64,000 nt of DNA from the NCBI GenBank assembly GCA_023144035.1, contig JAGLGM010000003.1:15876-79875 (forward strand), in the 5' to 3' direction. Shown here piece by piece: positions 13,638 to 62,073 of this stretch. Below the pieces are notes generated by a model. It did not search any database. It had not been told where the DNA came from and saw only the letters and a list, made by a program, of their open reading frames with translations. The position numbers and the translations under genes were made by a program. The stretch is from Candidatus Pacearchaeota archaeon. Its GTDB lineage: Archaea; Nanobdellota; Nanobdellia; Pacearchaeales; GW2011-AR1. Numbering within the stretch: the first letter of the stretch is position 1; each line of letters starts with the position of its first letter.

Positions 13638-13726
13638 GGATGCGTAAGTTAATGTTAGACTATGTGGCTCCAGAATTTTTAACATGGAGTTACCACAAAG
13701 CGAGGGTTAGATTCCCTCCGTGTCCA
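13638..13726 (+). tRNA. tRNA-Trp (anticodon CCA at 13670-13672) with 18-nt intron (13674-13691) after position 37
   Basis: Acceptor ggatgcg/cgtgtcc (two G-U), discriminator A, D-stem agtt/gact, anticodon stem tgtgg/ccaca, loop ctCCAg, T-arm gaggg-ttagatt-ccctc. Intron atggag pairs with anticodon-loop ctcca (BHB-like). Confidence 0.6.
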
Positions 13727-14044: not shown

Positions 14045-14338
14045 ATGAATTGTAACACATATCATGTATTTTTTAGAAATCTTGCAAATCCTATTAAGAC
14101 AAAGATAATCACTGCATTAAAAGAAAAAGAAAGTTCTGTTAGTGAATTATCTAAAAAATTAAAGATAGAACAAAGTAAATTATCTCATGCTTTATCTTCT
14201 TTAAGATGTTGTAATTTAGTTCTTGTGAAACAAAAAGGAAAAAATAGAATATATAGTTTAAATAAAAAAACAATAATTCCTATTCTTAAAATAATCGATA
14301 AACATAAATGTAATTATTGTAAGGCTTGTGGAAAATAA
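14045..14338 (+). CDS. ArsR/SmtB-family transcription regulator
   Basis: LANPIKTKIITALKEKESSVSELSKKLKIEQSKLSHALSSLRCCNLV; overlaps next gene. Confidence 0.65.
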   Translation: MNCNTYHVFFRNLANPIKTKIITALKEKESSVSELSKKLKIEQSKLSHALSSLRCCNLVLVKQKGKNRIYSLNKKTIIPILKIIDKHKCNYCKACGK

Positions 14339-15497
14339 AATGAAACAAATATATTTAGATAATGCTGCGACTACAAAGATGGATGGAAAAGTAGTTGGTG
14401 CTATGCTTCCTTATTTTGAAGGAAAATATGGGAATGCCTCATCACAACATCTTATAGGGCAAGAAGCAAAAAATGCTTTAAATAAATCTAGAAGAATAAT
14501 TGCAAGAGCAATTTCTGCTCGTAGTGATGAAATTATTTTTACTTCTGGAGGAACAGAATCAAATAATCTTGCGTTAAAAGGATTATTTTTAGAAAATTAT
14601 CCTGAAAAAAATCACATTATTACAACAAAAATAGAACATGATTGTACATTAAACACTTGTAAGTGGCTTGAAAAACAAGGGGCAAAAGTAACTTATTTAG
14701 ATGTTGATAAAGAAGGCTTTGTAAATGTAAAAGATATTGAAAAAGTAATAACAGATAAAACTTTTTTAGTAACAATAATTCATGCAAACAATGAAATAGG
14801 AACAATTCAAAATTTAGAAGAAATTGGAAAAATTTGTAAATCAAAAGAAGTTTTATTTCATACAGATGCTTGTCAAAGTTTCACAAAAGTTAATATTAAT
14901 GTTAAAAAACAAAATCTAGATTTAGTAACTTTAAATGCACATAAAATTCATGGTCCAAAAGGAGTGGGTGTTTTATATATTAAAAGAGGAATTAAAATTG
15001 CGCCTTTATCACATGGAGGAGGACATGAACAAGGATTTAGAAGTGGAACTGAAAATATCCCTGGAATAATTGGTTTTGTAAAAGCTGTAGAAATTGTAAA
15101 ATCAAAAGATGTTAAAAAAATGGAAATGCTTAGAGATAGATTAATTAGAGGATTATTAAAAATTCCAAATGTAACTTTAAATGGACCTATAAAAAATAGG
15201 TTATGTAATAATGTAAATGTATCTTTTAATAATATTGAAGGAGAAGCCATAGGAGGTTATTTAGAAAATCAAGGAATTTATACTTCTACAGGATCTGCAT
15301 GCATGTCTCATTCTTTAGAAACAAGTCATGTCTTAAAAGCATTAGGTCTACCTCCTTTAAAATCAAATAGTTCAATTAGATTAAGTTTGAGTAAATTTAC
15401 AACAGAACAAGATATTGATTATGTATTAGATAAAATTCCTAAAATAGTAAATAAATTGAGGAAAATAAGTCCTTTAGTTGGAGGTAATAGATGGTAA
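14328..15497 (+). CDS. iscS: Cysteine desulfurase (NifS/IscS family, PLP-dependent)
   Basis: IYLDNAATT, SGGTESNN, HKIHGPKGVG (PLP-Lys), SACMS active-site Cys. Confidence 0.85.
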   Translation: MENKMKQIYLDNAATTKMDGKVVGAMLPYFEGKYGNASSQHLIGQEAKNALNKSRRIIARAISARSDEIIFTSGGTESNNLALKGLFLENYPEKNHIITTKIEHDCTLNTCKWLEKQGAKVTYLDVDKEGFVNVKDIEKVITDKTFLVTIIHANNEIGTIQNLEEIGKICKSKEVLFHTDACQSFTKVNINVKKQNLDLVTLNAHKIHGPKGVGVLYIKRGIKIAPLSHGGGHEQGFRSGTENIPGIIGFVKAVEIVKSKDVKKMEMLRDRLIRGLLKIPNVTLNGPIKNRLCNNVNVSFNNIEGEAIGGYLENQGIYTSTGSACMSHSLETSHVLKALGLPPLKSNSSIRLSLSKFTTEQDIDYVLDKIPKIVNKLRKISPLVGGNRW

Positions 15498-16236
15498 AAT
15501 GGAAGACAAAGAAATAAAAAAAATAGTTAAAAATGCTTATTCAGAAATAGCTTCAAAAAAATGCGGTTGCCAATGTGGATGTGATTCTTCTGAAAAAGAA
15601 ATCGCAGAACAAATTGGTTATTCAAAAAAAGAAATAAATAATTTCTCAGATGCAAATTTAGGATTAGGTTGTGGAAATCCTGTTGCATTATCTAAAATAA
15701 AAAAAGGAGAAATTGTTTTAGATTTAGGAAGTGGAGCAGGTTTTGATGCTTTTCTTGCTGTTCAAAAAGTTGGAAAAACAGGAAAAGTTATTGGCGTGGA
15801 TATAACTGAAAAAATGATTGAAAAAGCAAAAGCTAATGCTAAAAGATATGGATATGAAAATGTTGAATTTAAATTAGGAGATATTGAAAGTTTACCTTTA
15901 GAAGATAATTCAGTTGATGTTATAATTAGTAATTGCGTTATTAATCTTGTTCCAGATAAAGAAAAAGTTTTTTCAGAAAGCTACAGAGTTTTAAAAAAAG
16001 GCGGAAAAATTTATGTTTCAGATATTGTTTTATTAAAAGAACTTTCTGAAGAACAAAAAAAAGATGAAAAATTATTGTCTGGGTGTGTTGCAGGAGCTTT
16101 GCAAAAAGAAGATTATATTGAAAAAATAAAAAAAGTAGGTTTTAAAGTTAAAATTCTTGGTGAAGATAAAGAAATAAGTAAAACTCAATATCAAGGAATT
16201 GATTTAGAAAGTTTGAAATTAGAGGGAATAAAATGA
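15478..16236 (+). CDS. SAM-dependent methyltransferase, ArsM/UbiE-like, with N-terminal Cys cluster
   Basis: VLDLGSGAGFDAFLA (motif I), GVDITEKM, DVIISNCVINLVPDKEKVF; CGCQCGCDS near N-terminus. Confidence 0.6.
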   Translation: MEVIDGKMEDKEIKKIVKNAYSEIASKKCGCQCGCDSSEKEIAEQIGYSKKEINNFSDANLGLGCGNPVALSKIKKGEIVLDLGSGAGFDAFLAVQKVGKTGKVIGVDITEKMIEKAKANAKRYGYENVEFKLGDIESLPLEDNSVDVIISNCVINLVPDKEKVFSESYRVLKKGGKIYVSDIVLLKELSEEQKKDEKLLSGCVAGALQKEDYIEKIKKVGFKVKILGEDKEISKTQYQGIDLESLKLEGIK

Positions 16237-16430
16237 AAATCACAAATAAAACAAAAATAAACAAATTGCTTGAAAAAAATCCTGAAGCAGCTGAAATTTT
16301 ATTTGAAGCTGGTATGGGTTGTGTGGGTTGTTCTATGGCTATGCATGAAACAATTGAACAAGGTTGTTTAGCACATGGAATGACAAAAAAACAAATTGAA
16401 AAATTAATTAAGGAGTTAAATAAGAAATGA
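16233..16430 (+). CDS. DUF1858-type redox disulfide small protein
   Basis: GMGCVGCSMAMHETIEQGCLAHG. Confidence 0.5.
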   Translation: MKITNKTKINKLLEKNPEAAEILFEAGMGCVGCSMAMHETIEQGCLAHGMTKKQIEKLIKELNKK

Positions 16431-18004
16431 TGAAATATTCTAAAAAAGTTATGTGTGAATTTCTCAAACCTAAAAACATGGGAGAAATAAAAAATCCAGA
16501 TGGAGTTGGAAAAATTGGAAATCCTACTTGTTTACTTCCAGATGAAAAAATTTGGTTAAATGAAAGTTTTGAAGCAATTAAAAAAACAAATAAAGGAGAT
16601 ATGGTTTTATCACATGATTCTACTGAAAATAAGATTTTAGGAAAATTTTCTAGAGAATATAAAGGAGAAATAATCAGACTAAAAAATGCGCTTGGGAATA
16701 TTTTTCTTACTCCAGAACATCTTGTTTTTGCAATGCGTATTCCAAAAGGAGATAAATTTAAAAGAAATAAAGGTAAAAAACAATTGATTCCTTCATGGTA
16801 TCATGCTGAATATTTGAAAAAAGGGGACATAATATTATATCCTTTTTCAAGAAAAGAAAAAAATATTAAATATTTGACAATAGATATCCCAAAACCCAAA
16901 TATGATTTTAGGAGCAAAAATATTCCAAGTAAAATCTCTCTTAACATGGATCTTTTGAGGCTTTTTGGTTACTTTCTCTCGGAAGGAAATATTCAAGATA
17001 AACCATCTAAAACATATATTTCTTTTGCGTTGCATATTAAGGAGAAAGAAATTGTCGAAGACATAAGAAAGATTGTTAAAAGATTATTTGATTTAGAAAT
17101 AAAATCCAAAGAAAGAATAAAGGAAAATGGGGTCGTTGTTTATATTTACCATGCTCAATTAGCAAGATGGTTTAAAAAATTATTTGGAAATGGTACTCAA
17201 AATAAATATTTACCTGAATTTATAATGCAATTACCCATATCAAAACAAAAAGCATTGATAAAAGGTTTGTGGAAAGGAGATGGATGCATCAATGTGAATC
17301 GTATTGGACCAAGAGCAGGCTATGTTACAATTTCATATAGATTATCTCAACAAATAAAAATCCTTTTACTAAGGCAAAAAATAATCTCTTCATTTTATAT
17401 TGAAAAAGAAAAAAAATCCAAATGGGCTAATCATAAAGAAGCTTATAGAATTCATGTGGGACAAAGAGATTCTCTAAAAAAATTATGTAAAATTTTAAAT
17501 TTAAAACATTGCTCAAAATCTTATGAGTCTATTAGTTCTTGGATTAACAATAATTTTTTATATACCCCTATAACTAAAATAGAAAGAAAAAATTATAAAG
17601 GAAAAGTATATAATTTAGAAGTTGAAAAGACCCATTCATTTATTTCAGAAAGTTTTTGTCTTCATAATTGTGGCGATGTTATGTGGGTTTATATTAAAGT
17701 TAAAAATGATAAAATTACAAAAATCAAATTTAAAACATTTGGATGTGCTGCTGCAATTGCAACATCTTCTATGGTTACTCAACTTGCTAAAGGAAAAACA
17801 ACTAAAGATGCTAAAAAAATTAAAATAAAAGATGTGGCATCTTCTTTAAAAGGATTACCTCCTCTAAAAATGCATTGTAGTGAACTTGCAACAGATGCTT
17901 TAAAATTAGCAATTAAAGATTATGAAAAAAAGAAAACTAATAAAAAGAAAAATGAAAATAGAACAAAAAGTAAAACAAACTTTGAAAAAGATAAAGTTAA
18001 ATAA
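16427..18004 (+). CDS. iscU: Fe-S cluster scaffold IscU/NifU-N, interrupted by an intein; Lys-rich C-terminal tail overlaps the next gene
   Basis: N-extein YSKKVMCEFLKPKNMGEIKNPDGVGKIGNPT; C-extein CGDVMWVYIKVKNDKITKIKFKTFGCAAAIATSSM…LPPLKMHCSELATDALKLAIKDY. Confidence 0.8.
   Translation: MMKYSKKVMCEFLKPKNMGEIKNPDGVGKIGNPTCLLPDEKIWLNESFEAIKKTNKGDMVLSHDSTENKILGKFSREYKGEIIRLKNALGNIFLTPEHLVFAMRIPKGDKFKRNKGKKQLIPSWYHAEYLKKGDIILYPFSRKEKNIKYLTIDIPKPKYDFRSKNIPSKISLNMDLLRLFGYFLSEGNIQDKPSKTYISFALHIKEKEIVEDIRKIVKRLFDLEIKSKERIKENGVVVYIYHAQLARWFKKLFGNGTQNKYLPEFIMQLPISKQKALIKGLWKGDGCINVNRIGPRAGYVTISYRLSQQIKILLLRQKIISSFYIEKEKKSKWANHKEAYRIHVGQRDSLKKLCKILNLKHCSKSYESISSWINNNFLYTPITKIERKNYKGKVYNLEVEKTHSFISESFCLHNCGDVMWVYIKVKNDKITKIKFKTFGCAAAIATSSMVTQLAKGKTTKDAKKIKIKDVASSLKGLPPLKMHCSELATDALKLAIKDYEKKKTNKKKNENRTKSKTNFEKDKVK
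16529..17668 (+). other. Intein (380 aa) with LAGLIDADG homing-endonuclease domain, inserted in IscU between GNPT and CGD
   Basis: Starts CLLPDEKIWLN (block A), LTPEHLVFA (block B TxxH), LFGYFLSEGNI and LIKGLWKGDGC (LAGLIDADG blocks). Ends …VYNLEVEKTHSFISESFCLHN followed by extein Cys. Confidence 0.75.
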
Positions 18005-18770
18005 AAAAGAAAAAATCATAGTTGCACTTTCTGGTGGAAAAGACTCAACTGTAACTGCTTATCTTTTAAAGAAATTAGGATATAATATTGAAGGATTTCA
18101 TATTAATTTAAGAATTGGAAAATATAGTGAAGATTGCTTAGAAGCTATAGAGAAATTATGTAAAGACCTTAAGATTAAACTTCATGTCTATGATATGAAA
18201 AATGAAATGGGAAGTGGAATGTGTTATCTCAGAACATCTATTCAATCAAGCCCAGGCAAAGGTAGACTAAAAAATTGTGCTATTTGCGGAGTTATTAAAA
18301 AATGGATTTTAAATAGAGAAGTGAGAAAATTAAAAGCTGATAAAATTGCGACAGGTCATAATTTAGATGATGAAGCTCAAACATTTTTAATGAATATCTT
18401 TAAAGGAAGTCCAAAATTAAGTGTAAACTCAGGTCCAATAACATTAAATATGCATGACGAAAAATTTATTCCAAGAATAAAACCTTTATTTTATGTTGCT
18501 GAAAATGATATTAGAGAATATTCAAAAAAAAATAAACTTCCTGTAAATTATGGGGCTTGTCCGTGTGCATTAGATTCTTATAGAATTCAAGTTAGGAAAT
18601 TCCTTGACACTTTATCTAAAAAAGATAAAGAAAACATTGTAAAAAACTTTGATAAATTACTTAAAAAAATTTCAAAATCAAAAGATGACAAAATAACTTA
18701 TTGTGAAATGTGTGGTGAACCTTCTAGAAATAATATCTGTAAAAAATGTGAATTAATGAAGATCGTCTAA
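17922..18770 (+). CDS. tRNA 2-thiolation PP-loop ATPase (TtuA/NcsA/Ncs6 family); true start probably internal, around 17952
   Basis: SGGKDS PP-loop, CAICG and C-terminal CEMCGEPSRNNICKKC zinc fingers. Confidence 0.7.
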   Translation: MKKRKLIKRKMKIEQKVKQTLKKIKLNKKEKIIVALSGGKDSTVTAYLLKKLGYNIEGFHINLRIGKYSEDCLEAIEKLCKDLKIKLHVYDMKNEMGSGMCYLRTSIQSSPGKGRLKNCAICGVIKKWILNREVRKLKADKIATGHNLDDEAQTFLMNIFKGSPKLSVNSGPITLNMHDEKFIPRIKPLFYVAENDIREYSKKNKLPVNYGACPCALDSYRIQVRKFLDTLSKKDKENIVKNFDKLLKKISKSKDDKITYCEMCGEPSRNNICKKCELMKIV

Positions 18771-29171: not shown

Positions 29172-29264
29172 GGCTCCGTAGCTCAGCCTGGCAGAGCACT
29201 GGACTTTTAGTTGGTAAAACAAGAAGTTATCCAGGTGTCGAGGGTTCAAATCCCCCCGGGGCCA
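29172..29264 (+). tRNA. tRNA-Lys (anticodon TTT at 29206-29208) with 19-nt intron (about 29210/11 to 29228/29)
   Basis: Acceptor ggctccg/cggggcc, discriminator A, D-arm gctc-agcctggca-gagc, anticodon stem ctgga/tccag, loop cTTTTag, T-arm gaggg-ttcaaat-ccccc (one A-C mismatch). Intron aagaagt pairs with actttt. Confidence 0.7.
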
Positions 29265-33062: not shown

Positions 33063-36000
33063 ATGGCAAAAGCAGTTAGAAAAAAAATAGGAGAAATTAA
33101 ATTTTCTTTAATTAGTCCTGACCAAATCAAAAAAATATCTTCTGCTAAAATTGTAACTCCTGAACTTTATGATATTGACGGTTATCCTGTTGATGGTGGT
33201 TTAATGGATTTAAGATTAGGTGCTATTGATCCTGGTGTAAGATGTAGAACTTGTGGGGGAAGATTAAAAGAATGTTTAGGACACCCAGGAAGTATTGATT
33301 TAGCTAGACCAGTTATTCACTTAAAATATATTCCTTTAATTGAAATGTGTTTAAGATGTTTTTGTCATGATTGTGGTAAATTAATGTTAGAAGATAAAAA
33401 TTTAGAAAAATTAGCTCCAAGTCAAAGAGCTAAAAAAGCAAAAGATTCTAAAAAATGTCCTCATTGTCAAGCAACTCAAACTAAAACTAAGTTAGATAAA
33501 CCTACAAATTTCTTTAAAGGAAAAACAAGAATATTTCCAACAGAAGTTAGAGAACTTTTAGTGAATATTTCTAATGACGAATTAAAAAAAATTGGAGTTG
33601 ATCCAGATAATTGTAGGCCTGAATGGGCTGTTTTAACTGCATTATTAGTTCCACCTGTAACAGTAAGACCAAGTATTATTTTAGAATCAGGTGAAAGAAG
33701 TGAAGATGATTTAACACATAAACTTTCAGATATTATTAGGGCTAATCAAAGACTATGGGAAAATTTAAATGCAGGTGCTCCTGAAGTTATTATTGAGGAT
33801 TTATGGGATTTGTTACAATTTCATATAACAACTTTCTTTGATAATACAACAACAAGAATTCCTCCTGCAAGACATAGAAGCGGTCAACCTTTAAAGACAA
33901 TTACAGAAAGAATAAAAGGTAAAGAAGGAAGAATTAGAAAAAATATTGCAGGTAAAAGAGTGAATTATTCTGGTAGAACTGTTATTTCTCCTGACCCTTA
34001 TATTAATATAAATGAAGTAGGAATTCCACATGAAATTGCAAGAATTGTTACTGTTTCTGAAATAGTTAATGATCTTAATCTTGAGAAATTAAAGGATTTA
34101 GTAAGGCAAGGAGAAACATATCCTGGTGCAAATTATGTTATACGTCCTGATGGAAAAAGAAAAAAAATAACAGAAGAATTAAGAGAAGAAATTATTAGTG
34201 AACTTTCTCCAGGTTATCAAGTTGAAAGGCATTTACAAAATGGAGATATTGTATTATTTAATAGACATCCAAGTCTTCACAGGGGAAGTCTTATGGCTCA
34301 CTATGTAAAAGTATTGCCTGGAAGAACATTTAGATTACATCCTGCTGCTGCTACTCCTTATAATGCTGATTTTGATGGTGATGAAATGAACATACACTCT
34401 CCACAAACAGAAGAAGCAAGAGCAGAAGCAAAAATACTTTTAGATGTTAAAAGAAATCTTATGTCTCCTAAAAATAATACAAATTTAGTTGGGTGTATTG
34501 GAGATGCTATTACTGGAAATTATTTATTAGGTTTTAATGAACTTTCTAAAGAAGATACAAATCAACTTTTATACAAATCAGGATTAGATTATTCTGTTTC
34601 AAAAAAAATGGTTTCTGGACTTGAAATCTTCTCGAAAATATTACCTAAAGTTAATTTTTCAAATGATTCTATAACAATTAAAGATGGAGAAATTACTAAA
34701 GGAGTTATAGATAAAACTACTTTTGGTGATGAAGATGGAGACTTAGTTAAAGAACTTGATAAAACTGTAGGTAGAACTGAAACTTTTGAAACTATTAAAC
34801 GAGCTTTTAATTTAGGTAAAAATTATCTTACTGATCATGGAATTACAACTTCTGTTGAAGATTTAGATTTAGATGAAAAAGTAATTGAAGCTGGTGAAGA
34901 AATAATTAAAAAAGCTGAGAAAAAAACAAATGAATTAATTTTATCTTATAATGAAGGAACTTTAGAAAGTATTCCTGGAAAAACAAAGGAAGAATCAAGA
35001 GAAATAAAAATCTTACAATCTTTAAATGAAGTAAGAACAAAAATTGGAGAAATTGTTAAACGAGAATTCCCTGCTTCAAATCCAGTTAACCATATGATTA
35101 AATCTGGAGGAGGAGGAAATATTCTTAATATTACTCAAATGGCTTCATGTGTTGGTCAACAAGCTTTAGGAAATCGTAGAGTTGATTTTGGTTATACAGG
35201 AAGAACACTTTCATTTTTCCAAAAAGGAGATTTATCTCCAAAATCAAGAGGTTTTATTAGAAATTCTTTTATTAAAGGTTTAAGGCCAGATGAATTCTTT
35301 TTCCAAGCAATTACAGGAAGAGATTCGCTTATGGATACTGGTTTGAGAACACCTAAATCAGGTTATTTATATAGAAGATTAGCAAATGCTTTACAAGATT
35401 TGAGAAAAGAATATGATGGAACAATTAGAGATAGTAATAATAATATTATTCAATTTAAATATGGAGATGATGGATTAGATGTTACCAAACTCCATATTAA
35501 AGGAGAATTAGATTCTGGAGAAGCAATAGGAATTGTTACTGCACAATCATTTGGAGAAGCTTCAACACAAATGGTTTTAAGAACATTCCATATGGCAGGT
35601 GTAGCAGAGATGCAAGTTACCCAAGGTTTACCAAGAATTATAGAAATTTTTGATGCAAGAAAAAAACCTTCTTCACCTAAAATGGAAGTTTATCTAAATA
35701 AAGAATTTAACAATGAAAAAAATGCAAAAATCTTTGCTGAAAAAATTAAAGAAGTTAAATTACAAGAAATTTCTTCTGAAATTATATTGGATTTTGGAAA
35801 TAAAAAAATTGAAATAAAAATTGATGATAAAGGATTAAAACAAACTCATGCTTCTATAAATAAAATTGTTGAAAGATTAAATGAAGCTGGATTTAAAGTT
35901 AAAGAAAAATCAAATTCAATAATTTTAAACGTTGCTGAATTTGAATTTAGAGAAATATATAAACTTAAAGAAAAATTAAAAGAAACTATAATTTCAGGCA

Positions 36001-36551
36001 TTAAAGATATTAAACAAGTTTTAATTGTAAAAAAAGATAGAGATTTTGTTGTAACTACTTTAGGAACAAATCTAAAAGAAATGATAAATATGAAAGAAGT
36101 TAATAAAGATAAATTAATTTCAAATGATTTTTATGAAATGGCTGATGTGTTTGGAATTGAATCTGCTCGTCAATTAATAATTAATGAAATTTCAGAAGTT
36201 CTTAAAAGTCAAGGATTAGATATTGATATAAGACATCTTAAATTAGTTGCAGATGCTATGACTAATTCTGGTGGAGTTAAAGGAGTTACAAGAATGGGTA
36301 TTATTGCTCTAAAATCTTCAATATTAGCAAGAGCTACTTTCGAAACTCCTGTTAAGCAATTTGTGAATGCTACTCTAAAAGGAAGCGGAGATAAATTAGC
36401 AAGTGTTATTGAAAATATTTTACTTAATCAACCAGTGCCAATTGGAACTGGTCTACCTGGACTTCTTGTTAAAGTTGTTGGACCTTTAATAAAAAAAGAG
36501 GAAGATAAGAAAAAAGCTAAAACAAAGGTTGTTGAAGAGGTCAACAAATAA
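33063..36551 (+). CDS. rpoA: RNA polymerase subunit A, apparently unsplit (A' and A'' regions in one 1162-aa ORF)
   Basis: Zinc motifs at N-terminus, NADFDGDEMN catalytic loop, then trigger-loop/A''-type region (AQSFGEASTQMVLRTFHMAGVA) in the same frame. Confidence 0.9.
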   Translation: MAKAVRKKIGEIKFSLISPDQIKKISSAKIVTPELYDIDGYPVDGGLMDLRLGAIDPGVRCRTCGGRLKECLGHPGSIDLARPVIHLKYIPLIEMCLRCFCHDCGKLMLEDKNLEKLAPSQRAKKAKDSKKCPHCQATQTKTKLDKPTNFFKGKTRIFPTEVRELLVNISNDELKKIGVDPDNCRPEWAVLTALLVPPVTVRPSIILESGERSEDDLTHKLSDIIRANQRLWENLNAGAPEVIIEDLWDLLQFHITTFFDNTTTRIPPARHRSGQPLKTITERIKGKEGRIRKNIAGKRVNYSGRTVISPDPYININEVGIPHEIARIVTVSEIVNDLNLEKLKDLVRQGETYPGANYVIRPDGKRKKITEELREEIISELSPGYQVERHLQNGDIVLFNRHPSLHRGSLMAHYVKVLPGRTFRLHPAAATPYNADFDGDEMNIHSPQTEEARAEAKILLDVKRNLMSPKNNTNLVGCIGDAITGNYLLGFNELSKEDTNQLLYKSGLDYSVSKKMVSGLEIFSKILPKVNFSNDSITIKDGEITKGVIDKTTFGDEDGDLVKELDKTVGRTETFETIKRAFNLGKNYLTDHGITTSVEDLDLDEKVIEAGEEIIKKAEKKTNELILSYNEGTLESIPGKTKEESREIKILQSLNEVRTKIGEIVKREFPASNPVNHMIKSGGGGNILNITQMASCVGQQALGNRRVDFGYTGRTLSFFQKGDLSPKSRGFIRNSFIKGLRPDEFFFQAITGRDSLMDTGLRTPKSGYLYRRLANALQDLRKEYDGTIRDSNNNIIQFKYGDDGLDVTKLHIKGELDSGEAIGIVTAQSFGEASTQMVLRTFHMAGVAEMQVTQGLPRIIEIFDARKKPSSPKMEVYLNKEFNNEKNAKIFAEKIKEVKLQEISSEIILDFGNKKIEIKIDDKGLKQTHASINKIVERLNEAGFKVKEKSNSIILNVAEFEFREIYKLKEKLKETIISGIKDIKQVLIVKKDRDFVVTTLGTNLKEMINMKEVNKDKLISNDFYEMADVFGIESARQLIINEISEVLKSQGLDIDIRHLKLVADAMTNSGGVKGVTRMGIIALKSSILARATFETPVKQFVNATLKGSGDKLASVIENILLNQPVPIGTGLPGLLVKVVGPLIKKEEDKKKAKTKVVEEVNK

Positions 36552-61921: not shown

Positions 61922-62073
61922 GCCCAGATCGCATAGTGGTTATTGCACCGGATTGCTAAGCACAGGACACCTCAACGGTTTCCTACCGCACTACCTTCCC
62001 TTAATGGATTGTAGAAGTTAACGCAAAGATCCGGACCCTTCGGGGTGCGTAGGTTCGACTCCTACTCTGGGCG
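61922..62073 (+). tRNA. tRNA-Ser (anticodon GCT at 61955-61957) with about 70-nt intron (61960-62029) and long variable arm
   Basis: Acceptor gcccaga/tctgggc, discriminator G, D-loop with GG, anticodon stem ccgga/tccgg, loop ttGCTaa, variable arm acccttcggggtgc, T-arm gtagg-ttcgact-cctac. Intron 3' end gcaa pairs with ttgc (BHB-like). Confidence 0.65.
61964..62004 (+). other. Second copy of the 41-nt element, inside the tRNA-Ser intron
   Basis: See 32997-33037. Confidence 0.5.

Follow-up and report, generated by a model that had tools for sequence, protein, structure and literature searches.

A stretch of 64,000 nucleotides (nt) from a Candidatus Pacearchaeota archaeon (contig JAGLGM010000003.1, positions 15,876 to 79,875 of the forward strand; hereafter 'the window', to which all coordinates refer) contains an unusually long gene for the iron-sulfur (Fe-S) cluster scaffold IscU. 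Its open reading frame (ORF; IscU/NifU-N type, 16427-18004, plus strand) encodes 525 amino acids (aa), of which exactly 380 (aa 35-414, nt 16529-17668) form an in-frame insert. What is this insert, what would become of the scaffold it interrupts, and does it still move? A first-pass annotation, made from the sequence alone, had flagged the insert as a LAGLIDADG mini-intein in IscU; its coordinates and all the peptides it quoted were confirmed. We report here that the insert is almost certainly a canonical class 1, full-length intein with a complete two-motif LAGLIDADG endonuclease.

The insert splits the cluster-ligand site of IscU

The two ends of the protein are readily recognized as IscU. 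Pfam NifU_N matched the host sequence in two stretches and above its curated cut-off (E = 2.9e-37), and the C-extein was also matched by the NCBIfam NifU_clost and IscU models. The intein-free IscU of Methanothrix thermoacetophila (structure 7c8m) covered aa 3-35 with its chain residues 6-38 and aa 415-505 with its residues 38-128 (E = 5e-38 overall). The N-extein comprises aa 1-34 (MMKYSKKVMCEFLKPKNMGEIKNPDGVGKIGNPT; 16427..16528, plus strand, as for all features of this gene), aligned to 7c8m residues 6-38 and containing the first NifU_N stretch. The intein runs from Cys35 to Asn414 with an embedded homing endonuclease (16529..17668), and the C-extein comprises aa 415-525 and the stop codon (17669..18004; 7c8m residues 38-128). 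The N-terminal junction reads ...VGKIGNPT/CLLPDEK... and the C-terminal junction ...SFCLHN/CGDVMWVYIKV, with slashes marking the predicted splice points.

Alignment to the intein-free 7c8m placed the insertion point exactly before its Cys38. The other residues of the ligand site follow within the C-extein: Asp417 (17675-17677) is aligned to D40, Cys440 (17744-17746) to C63, and His483-Cys484 (17873-17878) to H106-C107. Variants D40A, H106A and H106C deposited for the 7c8m protein mark the residues aligned to Asp417 and His483. Among 126 sequences, intein-containing as well as intein-free, C415, G416, D417, C440, H483 and C484 are invariant. Since it aligns to Cys38 and never varies, Cys415 (17669-17671), the predicted +1 splice nucleophile, is itself the first cluster-ligand cysteine of IscU. 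The first-pass annotation had thus correctly located the insertion at the cluster-binding region, and fell short only in calling it adjacent to the cysteines there. The spliced product would be a standard IscU with the Cys/Asp/Cys/His-Cys ligand set; the same set is present in the uninterrupted IscU genes of M. thermoacetophila (7c8m), Archaeoglobus fulgidus (4eb5) and E. coli.

A full-length class 1 intein with a two-motif endonuclease

Intein-profile searches returned matches above curated cut-offs. The insert scored 44 bits against Pfam Intein_splicing (cut-off 35.8; E = 2.6e-11), 52.5 bits against LAGLIDADG_3 (cut-off 22.5; E = 6.2e-14; two stretches) and 32.5 bits against the NCBIfam model intein_Cterm, TIGR01443 (cut-off 15.6; aa 393-415). 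The N-terminal splicing lobe of the HINT domain (aa 35-168; 16529..16930; model beta-strands E41-E151) begins with Cys1 (16529-16531) and includes a basic loop, KGDKFKRNKGKK, as well as block B, LTPEHLV (16706..16726), with the TxxH motif Thr95-Pro-Glu-His98. The C-terminal splicing lobe (aa 361-414; 17507..17668), at which the TIGR01443 match lies, carries blocks F and G (VYNLEVEKTHSFISESFCLHN; 17606-17668) and ends in His413-Asn414. Between the two lobes lies the LAGLIDADG homing-endonuclease domain (about aa 169-360; 16931..17506), delineated by the two LAGLIDADG_3 stretches and the structural model. Its first motif, LLRLFGYFLSEGNI (LFGYFLSEG; 16952..16993), contains the putative catalytic Glu186, and its second, ALIKGLWKGDGCI (LIKGLWKGDG; 17252..17290), the putative catalytic Asp285.

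Computed from a 126-sequence alignment, a confident AlphaFold2 model of the complete 525-aa precursor (predicted local distance difference test, pLDDT, 90.6; predicted TM-score, pTM, 0.81) builds a beta-rich HINT domain from aa 35-168 and 361-414, and a tandem alpha-beta-beta-alpha-beta-beta-alpha domain from aa 174-253 and aa 271-356. The topology of the latter, with helices as H and strands as E, is H174-186 E E H207-221 E E H243-253, then H271-285 E E H304-316 E E H347-356. The two exteins together form the IscU fold. In a Foldseek search of the PDB, the best matches were the inteins TliVMA (1.4e-21), PI-SceI, PhoVMA, PI-PkoII and PI-PfuI (E from 1e-21 to 4e-14, probability 1.00), followed by IscU structures, matching the extein part with a root-mean-square deviation of 0.9-1.6 A, and by the stand-alone LAGLIDADG enzyme I-DmoI (target-normalized TM-score 0.72-0.75). 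Cys1, the block B TxxH, His-Asn/Cys and the HINT fold of class 1 inteins are thus present, as are the two motifs ending in an acid and a glycine and the tandem fold of a monomeric two-motif LAGLIDADG endonuclease.

The assignment as an intein in IscU with two LAGLIDADG blocks was thus borne out by Pfam, NCBIfam and structure matches. The 'mini-intein' label was wrong: a mini-intein by definition has no endonuclease domain and spans roughly 130-200 aa, whereas the insert measures 380 aa and possesses a complete endonuclease domain with both catalytic acids. Its bipartite build, with a monomeric two-motif LAGLIDADG endonuclease lodged within the HINT domain, is that of the VMA-type inteins (PI-SceI; TliVMA and PhoVMA, 7qss/7qst; PI-PkoII, 2cw7; PI-PfuI, 1dq3). 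These differ from it, however, in sequence (12-19% identity) and in their hosts, namely V-ATPase, DNA polymerase and ribonucleotide reductase (RNR). PI-PkoII was the only intein among solved structures to be matched by sequence (3.5e-07).

Might the insert instead be a domain native to some longer form of IscU, or else an artefact of assembly or frameshifting? The unusual length of the ORF would fit such a view, as would an NCBI gene model that starts at Met59 and names no intein. Both options were rejected. The junction residues are invariant, and an insert at this place would keep the cluster ligands of IscU apart; furthermore, the IscU-plus-intein architecture recurs in hundreds of independent assemblies (JGI, ENA, NCBI, Logan), and precise removal of the insert restores a gap-free alignment. 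As grounds for abandoning the intein, the first-pass annotation had named a lack of conserved terminal residues or IscU homologues with the same region as a native domain; what we found is invariant junctions and a syntenic empty site (see below). We regard a non-intein origin as exceedingly improbable.

Splicing and endonuclease residues are conserved across the family

A first homologue search returned 821 matches below 1e-5. The 120 matches listed all combine NifU_N with LAGLIDADG_3, nearly all of them with Intein_splicing as well, and measure 424-554 aa. Apart from P0001, which is identical to the query, they share 56-83% identity with it, and all 119 of these non-identical homologues retain intact C...HN/C junctions around inteins of 380-415 aa (median 380).

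Residues were counted per column over 120 aligned intein-containing sequences. Cys1, both the Thr and the His of the TxxH motif, and Cys415 are kept in 120/120. In the first LAGLIDADG motif, the same holds for G181, Y182, E186 and G187; in the second, W282, G284 and G286 are fully conserved and Asp285 is found in 119 sequences, the sole exception carrying Glu. N396, E398, S404, H413 and N414 of the C-terminal lobe are likewise invariant, His403 is present in 115 and Cys411 in 85 of the sequences. Block F, VYNLEVEKTHSF, departs from the common pattern. Inteins usually carry Asp at position F:4 and His at F:13, a typical but not obligatory arrangement, and VMA-type families, too, usually have Asp where the IscU inteins have Asn. 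Here, position 4 is Asn396 in 120/120 sequences and never Asp, a substitution common to the whole family, whose inteins are otherwise intact.

The intein is conserved to the same degree as the exteins (mean identities to the query of 63% and 59-61%, respectively). Within the intein, the endonuclease domain is the best-conserved large part (66% mean identity), compared to 56% for the N-terminal lobe. Relative to the related occupied locus L004 introduced below, the ratio of nonsynonymous to synonymous substitution rates (dN/dS) is 0.20 for the intein and 0.18 for its endonuclease domain; the exteins and the cysteine desulfurase IscS have ratios of 0.13 and 0.14, respectively. The intein is under purifying selection, and both of its activities appear to be. 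Given that the catalytic residues are invariant and selection is purifying, the intein is very probably splicing-competent; that its endonuclease is still active seems fairly likely.

The IscU site is occupied in archaea and, it appears, in bacteria

To what extent is the IscU site occupied elsewhere? When scored against 1.84 billion representatives clustered at 50% identity, the 380-aa intein returned 6,981 matches at E<=1e-3, 184 of them at E<=1e-30. A local IscU profile assigned 21 of the best 150 representatives to IscU hosts; their intein identities range from 67% down to 34%, and IscU-hosted inteins at 39-59% identity head the hit list. Wherever both exteins were present in these IscU-hosted representatives, the break fell at profile position 35/36. 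When clustered at 90% identity, IscU proteins with an intein at this site fall into more than 119 groups.

A scan of GTDB species representatives yielded at least 517 relatives, with 80 loci listed. Among the latter, 53 are hosted by IscU at the same position, corresponding to at least 53 species representatives. Going by the lineage names in the record titles, the occupied loci, those of DPANN phyla among them, include representatives of Nanoarchaeota, Woesearchaeota, Pacearchaeota, Diapherotrites (Iainarchaeum), Micrarchaeota, Aenigmatarchaeota, Altiarchaeota, Thermoplasmata, Methanomassiliicoccaceae, Bathyarchaeia, Nitrososphaerota, Asgard archaea (Atabeyarchaeia) and Omnitrophota bacteria. 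In the closed chromosome of the Asgard archaeon Candidatus Atabeyarchaeum deiterrae (L079; CP147780.1, 2318-3943), a 49% identical intein occupies the same site of an IscU gene flanked by genes for an HtrA-like protease, a MoeB/ThiF-like adenylyltransferase and UbiX.

The bacterial occurrences deserve separate mention. In an Omnitrophica contig (L049; MHFL01000004.1, 2375-3928), IscU is interrupted at the same site by an intein of about 40% identity, as it is at two further loci (L052, L054). Neighbouring genes in L049 encode pyruvate kinase, an Rrf2/IscR regulator, NifS and a bacterial-type MTHFS. We considered whether this might be a mis-binned DPANN contig and rejected the idea on account of the bacterial type of its neighbours; with IscR/Rrf2, NifS and MTHFS genes of this kind, the locus looks genuinely bacterial. 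The IscU site thus appears to be occupied in both domains, and the bacterial IscR-NifS-IscU context suggests inter-domain transfer of the intein allele. 'Saccharibacteria' and 'Patescibacteria' labels on some occupied metagenome-assembled genomes may be misassignments.

The nearest relatives in hosts other than IscU reside in the beta subunit of 2-oxoacid:ferredoxin oxidoreductase, UDP-glucose dehydrogenase, ferredoxin, pyridine-nucleotide disulfide oxidoreductase, methyltransferases and a glycosyltransferase. Such inteins in DPANN-type metabolic genes are of the same size and LAGLIDADG_3 type as the IscU intein (31-40% identity over 380 aa; E from 1e-59 to 1e-42), yet sit in other host proteins at other insertion sites. 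One IscU-plus-intein protein in a 'Parcubacteria' record (P0104) bears the name '2-oxoglutarate ferredoxin oxidoreductase subunit beta'. This name was probably transferred through the intein, because the beta subunits of such oxidoreductases host the closest relatives outside IscU.

Empty and occupied alleles point to a probably mobile element

A search with the spliced 145-aa extein sequence retrieved intein-free IscU proteins of up to 91% identity. When ranked by identity, the 16 nearest extein relatives (84-90%) are all intein-free, and the first intein-containing one (P0002, 84%) follows only after them.

A presence/absence polymorphism is seen within a single JGI metagenome (3300028193), which contains both a contig with an empty site (L001; IscU of 124 aa) and one with an occupied site (L004; 503 aa), the intein of the latter being 83% identical to that of the window at the aa level. 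Both contigs share the gene order ORF187, ORF226, helix-turn-helix (HTH) protein, IscS, DUF1858 protein, NUDIX hydrolase, IscU and PP-loop ATPase, and the window follows the same order except for one swap between IscS and IscU. For most flanking proteins, identities between any two of the three loci lie at 77-91%; the PP-loop ATPase of the window has diverged further (66-68%). With nt 16529-17668 removed, the coding sequence from the window aligns without a gap to the 124-aa IscU gene of the empty contig, whose uninterrupted site reads GGTAATCCTCAA directly followed by TGTGGAGATATTATGTGG.

Intein and host histories were compared by two further measures. Over 120 occupied alleles, pairwise intein and extein identities correlate weakly (Spearman rho 0.29). 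In one discordant pair (P0083/P0107), 98% identical exteins accompany inteins of 70% identity; in another (P0078/P0113), exteins of 46% identity accompany inteins of 73%. Between the window and the occupied contig, synonymous divergence (dS) amounts to 0.45 for the intein (bootstrap interval 0.34-0.59) and 0.65 for the host (0.56-0.77; 990 host codons), which is suggestive of an intein younger than its host locus. An additional metagenome protein (P0358) is a 292-aa IscU with an intein of 162 aa at the same site, from which the endonuclease domain is cleanly deleted; it is a natural mini-intein derivative of the family.

Several points weigh against reading these data as the signature of a mobile intein. 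The discordance analysis is noisy, the exteins being short (about 121 aligned columns). The dS confidence intervals marginally overlap, and the difference could reflect codon usage. Between the window and the occupied contig, the intein has diverged about as far (83% aa identity) as its neighbour genes (77-87%), and the three loci are compatible with vertical descent and one precise loss in the empty contig. As to the splicing reaction, the Asn at F:4 may alter the kinetics or the coordination of the steps.

An intein that splices but whose endonuclease no longer drives homing, being a fixed vertical passenger or serving another role and occasionally deleted precisely, would account for the matching divergence of intein and neighbour genes. 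The occurrence of the intein in very distant lineages, possibly a sign of antiquity, would fit as well, and the mini-intein derivative demonstrates that endonuclease loss does occur. Against this, both catalytic acids and the glycine framework of both LAGLIDADG motifs show little or no variation among 120 sequences, and the endonuclease domain is better conserved than the N-terminal lobe and has the low dN/dS given above, whereas a domain without function should decay. The histories of intein and exteins disagree, moreover, and one and the same sample holds empty as well as occupied alleles. We therefore consider a non-homing passenger rather unlikely. The data fit a homing cycle, in which the intein is gained, spreads, loses its endonuclease and is precisely lost, better than strict vertical descent. 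On the strength of the invariant residues, the dN/dS of 0.20, the intein-free nearest exteins, the empty and occupied loci and the poor intein-extein correlation, the insert is predicted to be a splicing-competent and probably still mobile element.

A proposed splicing and homing pathway for the IscU intein

How, then, would IscU be matured? The explanation that we find highly likely overall is a canonical class 1 homing intein in IscU that follows the class 1 splicing and homing pathway; the scheme below is modelled on the established route of such inteins. The 525-aa precursor would be unable to assemble a cluster, with its ligand site split by the 380-aa insert. Splicing would start with an N-S acyl shift at Cys35, aided by Thr95 and His98 of block B. 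The resulting thioester would be attacked by Cys415 (trans-thioesterification), whereupon cyclization of Asn414, aided by His413 and His403, would free the intein. A final S-N shift would leave a normal Thr34-Cys415 peptide bond, the ligated peptide across it reading IGNPTCGDVMWVYIK. Predicted products are a functional IscU of 145 aa and a free endonuclease of 380 aa. The latter, with Glu186 and Asp285 as its catalytic, metal-binding residues, would cut intein-less IscU at the sequence coding for GNPx/CGD[IV]M, and repair from an occupied allele would copy the intein into the cut one. Anatomy, conservation, presence/absence polymorphism and purifying selection are seen in the data; the chemistry, the cleavage and the homing are inferred.

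Is the intein a switch of Fe-S cluster assembly?

By analogy, the nearest precedent for the IscU intein is the SufB (Pps1) intein of Mycobacterium tuberculosis, which is also of class 1, has Cys1 and Cys+1 and interrupts an Fe-S assembly scaffold. Host and pathway (SUF as opposed to ISC/NIF-type IscU) and organism group differ, and in the IscU intein a cluster-ligand cysteine doubles as the +1 nucleophile. For SufB, PMC8891592 and Topilina 2015 (cited in PMC4760082) propose that scaffold maturation is sensitive to oxidative and nitrosative stress, and report redox or metal control through the two junction cysteines.

Splicing of the IscU intein might similarly respond to redox state or metals through Cys35, Cys415 and the frequent Cys411. 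This would be in keeping with cysteines as both splice nucleophiles, with the position of Cys415 as a metal or cluster ligand adjoining Asp417, with the presence of Cys411 in 85/120 sequences and with the precedent of stress sensitivity in another Fe-S scaffold. On the other hand, close relatives do well without the intein, implying that any regulatory role is dispensable; Cys1 and Cys+1 are a very common intein configuration; and insertion at the active site is already predicted by homing-site conservation alone. We therefore regard a conditional switch as doubtful, and the broader proposition, in which the intein would be more than a selfish passenger and gate Fe-S cluster biogenesis at the post-translational level, as slightly more doubtful still. 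Such a gate would require splicing to be reversibly blocked at the junction by a Cys35-Cys415 disulfide, metal binding or persulfide loading. If it did exist, the supply of scaffold would follow redox or iron status in archaea with reduced genomes and no elaborate regulators, and the lasting occupation of one site in several archaeal phyla and in Omnitrophota would have an explanation.

A well-understood element in a new host protein and at a new site

With the homing intein as the preferred explanation, what is new is the host protein and the insertion site, not the kind of element, which is thoroughly understood. Our full-text searches, combining inteins with IscU/NifU, Fe-S assembly or DPANN, found no paper describing an IscU/NifU intein; an entry in a supplement or in InBase is possible. 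The main intein census assigns 61-67% of hosts to replication, recombination and repair (COG category L; PMC4760082), and its main text, as distinct from its supplements, mentions neither IscU, NifU nor COG0822. The rarity implied by the first-pass annotation therefore holds for the literature searched and does not for the databases, given the numbers of clusters and species above. IscU-intein sequences are already public, with their Pfam architecture precomputed.

IscU, the central scaffold of the ISC/NIF-type pathway, hence joins the list of intein hosts. With a cluster ligand as its splice nucleophile, the IscU intein is a clean natural case in which to address a matter first brought up with SufB, namely whether an intein in an Fe-S scaffold can serve as a redox or metal switch. 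That the closest relatives reside in metabolic genes hints that the replication/repair bias of cultured genomes may be weaker in DPANN-type lineages. There is also a consequence for annotation, in that calls of IscU presence or absence in DPANN metabolic reconstructions could be affected. The NCBI gene model of the window protein (P0001) is 467 aa long, its start at Met59 lying inside the intein, so that the entire N-extein and 24 residues at the beginning of the intein are missing from it. Its name is only 'iron-sulfur cluster assembly scaffold protein', with the intein unmentioned.

Genomic context of the intein-bearing gene

The window is AT-rich (about 26% GC), and the intein-bearing IscU gene belongs to a sulfur-mobilization operon within it. 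Upstream lie, on the same strand, genes for its operon partner, a cysteine desulfurase of the IscS/NifS type (14328..15497; Pfam Aminotran_5, 8.3e-87), for an S-adenosylmethionine (SAM)-dependent methyltransferase (15478-16236; Methyltransf_31, 5.3e-42) and for a small DUF1858 protein (16233-16430; DUF1858, 9.7e-15), whose stop codon overlaps the ATG of IscU (ATGA). Downstream on the plus strand follows a PP-loop ATPase resembling TtcA and tRNA-thiolation proteins (17922..18770; ATP_bind_3, 4.9e-17), and a radical-SAM gene converges from the opposite strand. IscS upstream and the PP-loop ATPase downstream of IscU are conserved in both L001 and L004. The interval between IscS and IscU holds the methyltransferase and DUF1858 genes in the window (15478-16430), and the DUF1858 and NUDIX hydrolase genes in L001 (5343-6004) and L004 (5114-5763), a small gene replacement within an otherwise conserved operon. 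At the other end of IscU, a Lys-rich tail of the C-extein (aa 505-525) is absent from relatives, and nt 17922-18004 overlap the first 83 nt of the PP-loop ATPase ORF; the end of one of the two genes may be mis-set.

A phmmer search against all six-frame ORFs of the window found no second copy of the IscU intein, and the usual intein hosts encoded there (class II RNR, RpoB, RpoA, EF-2 and SMC) are uninterrupted. Three plus-strand tRNA matches (13638-13726, 29172-29264 and 61922-62073) measure 89, 93 and 152 nt, implying introns; ARAGORN recovered one of the three, with an undetermined anticodon. Lastly, a single 1162-aa ORF of the window (33063-36551, plus strand) contains RNA polymerase Rpb1 domains 1-5 and looks like an unsplit RpoA; in archaea, this subunit is usually divided into A' and A''.

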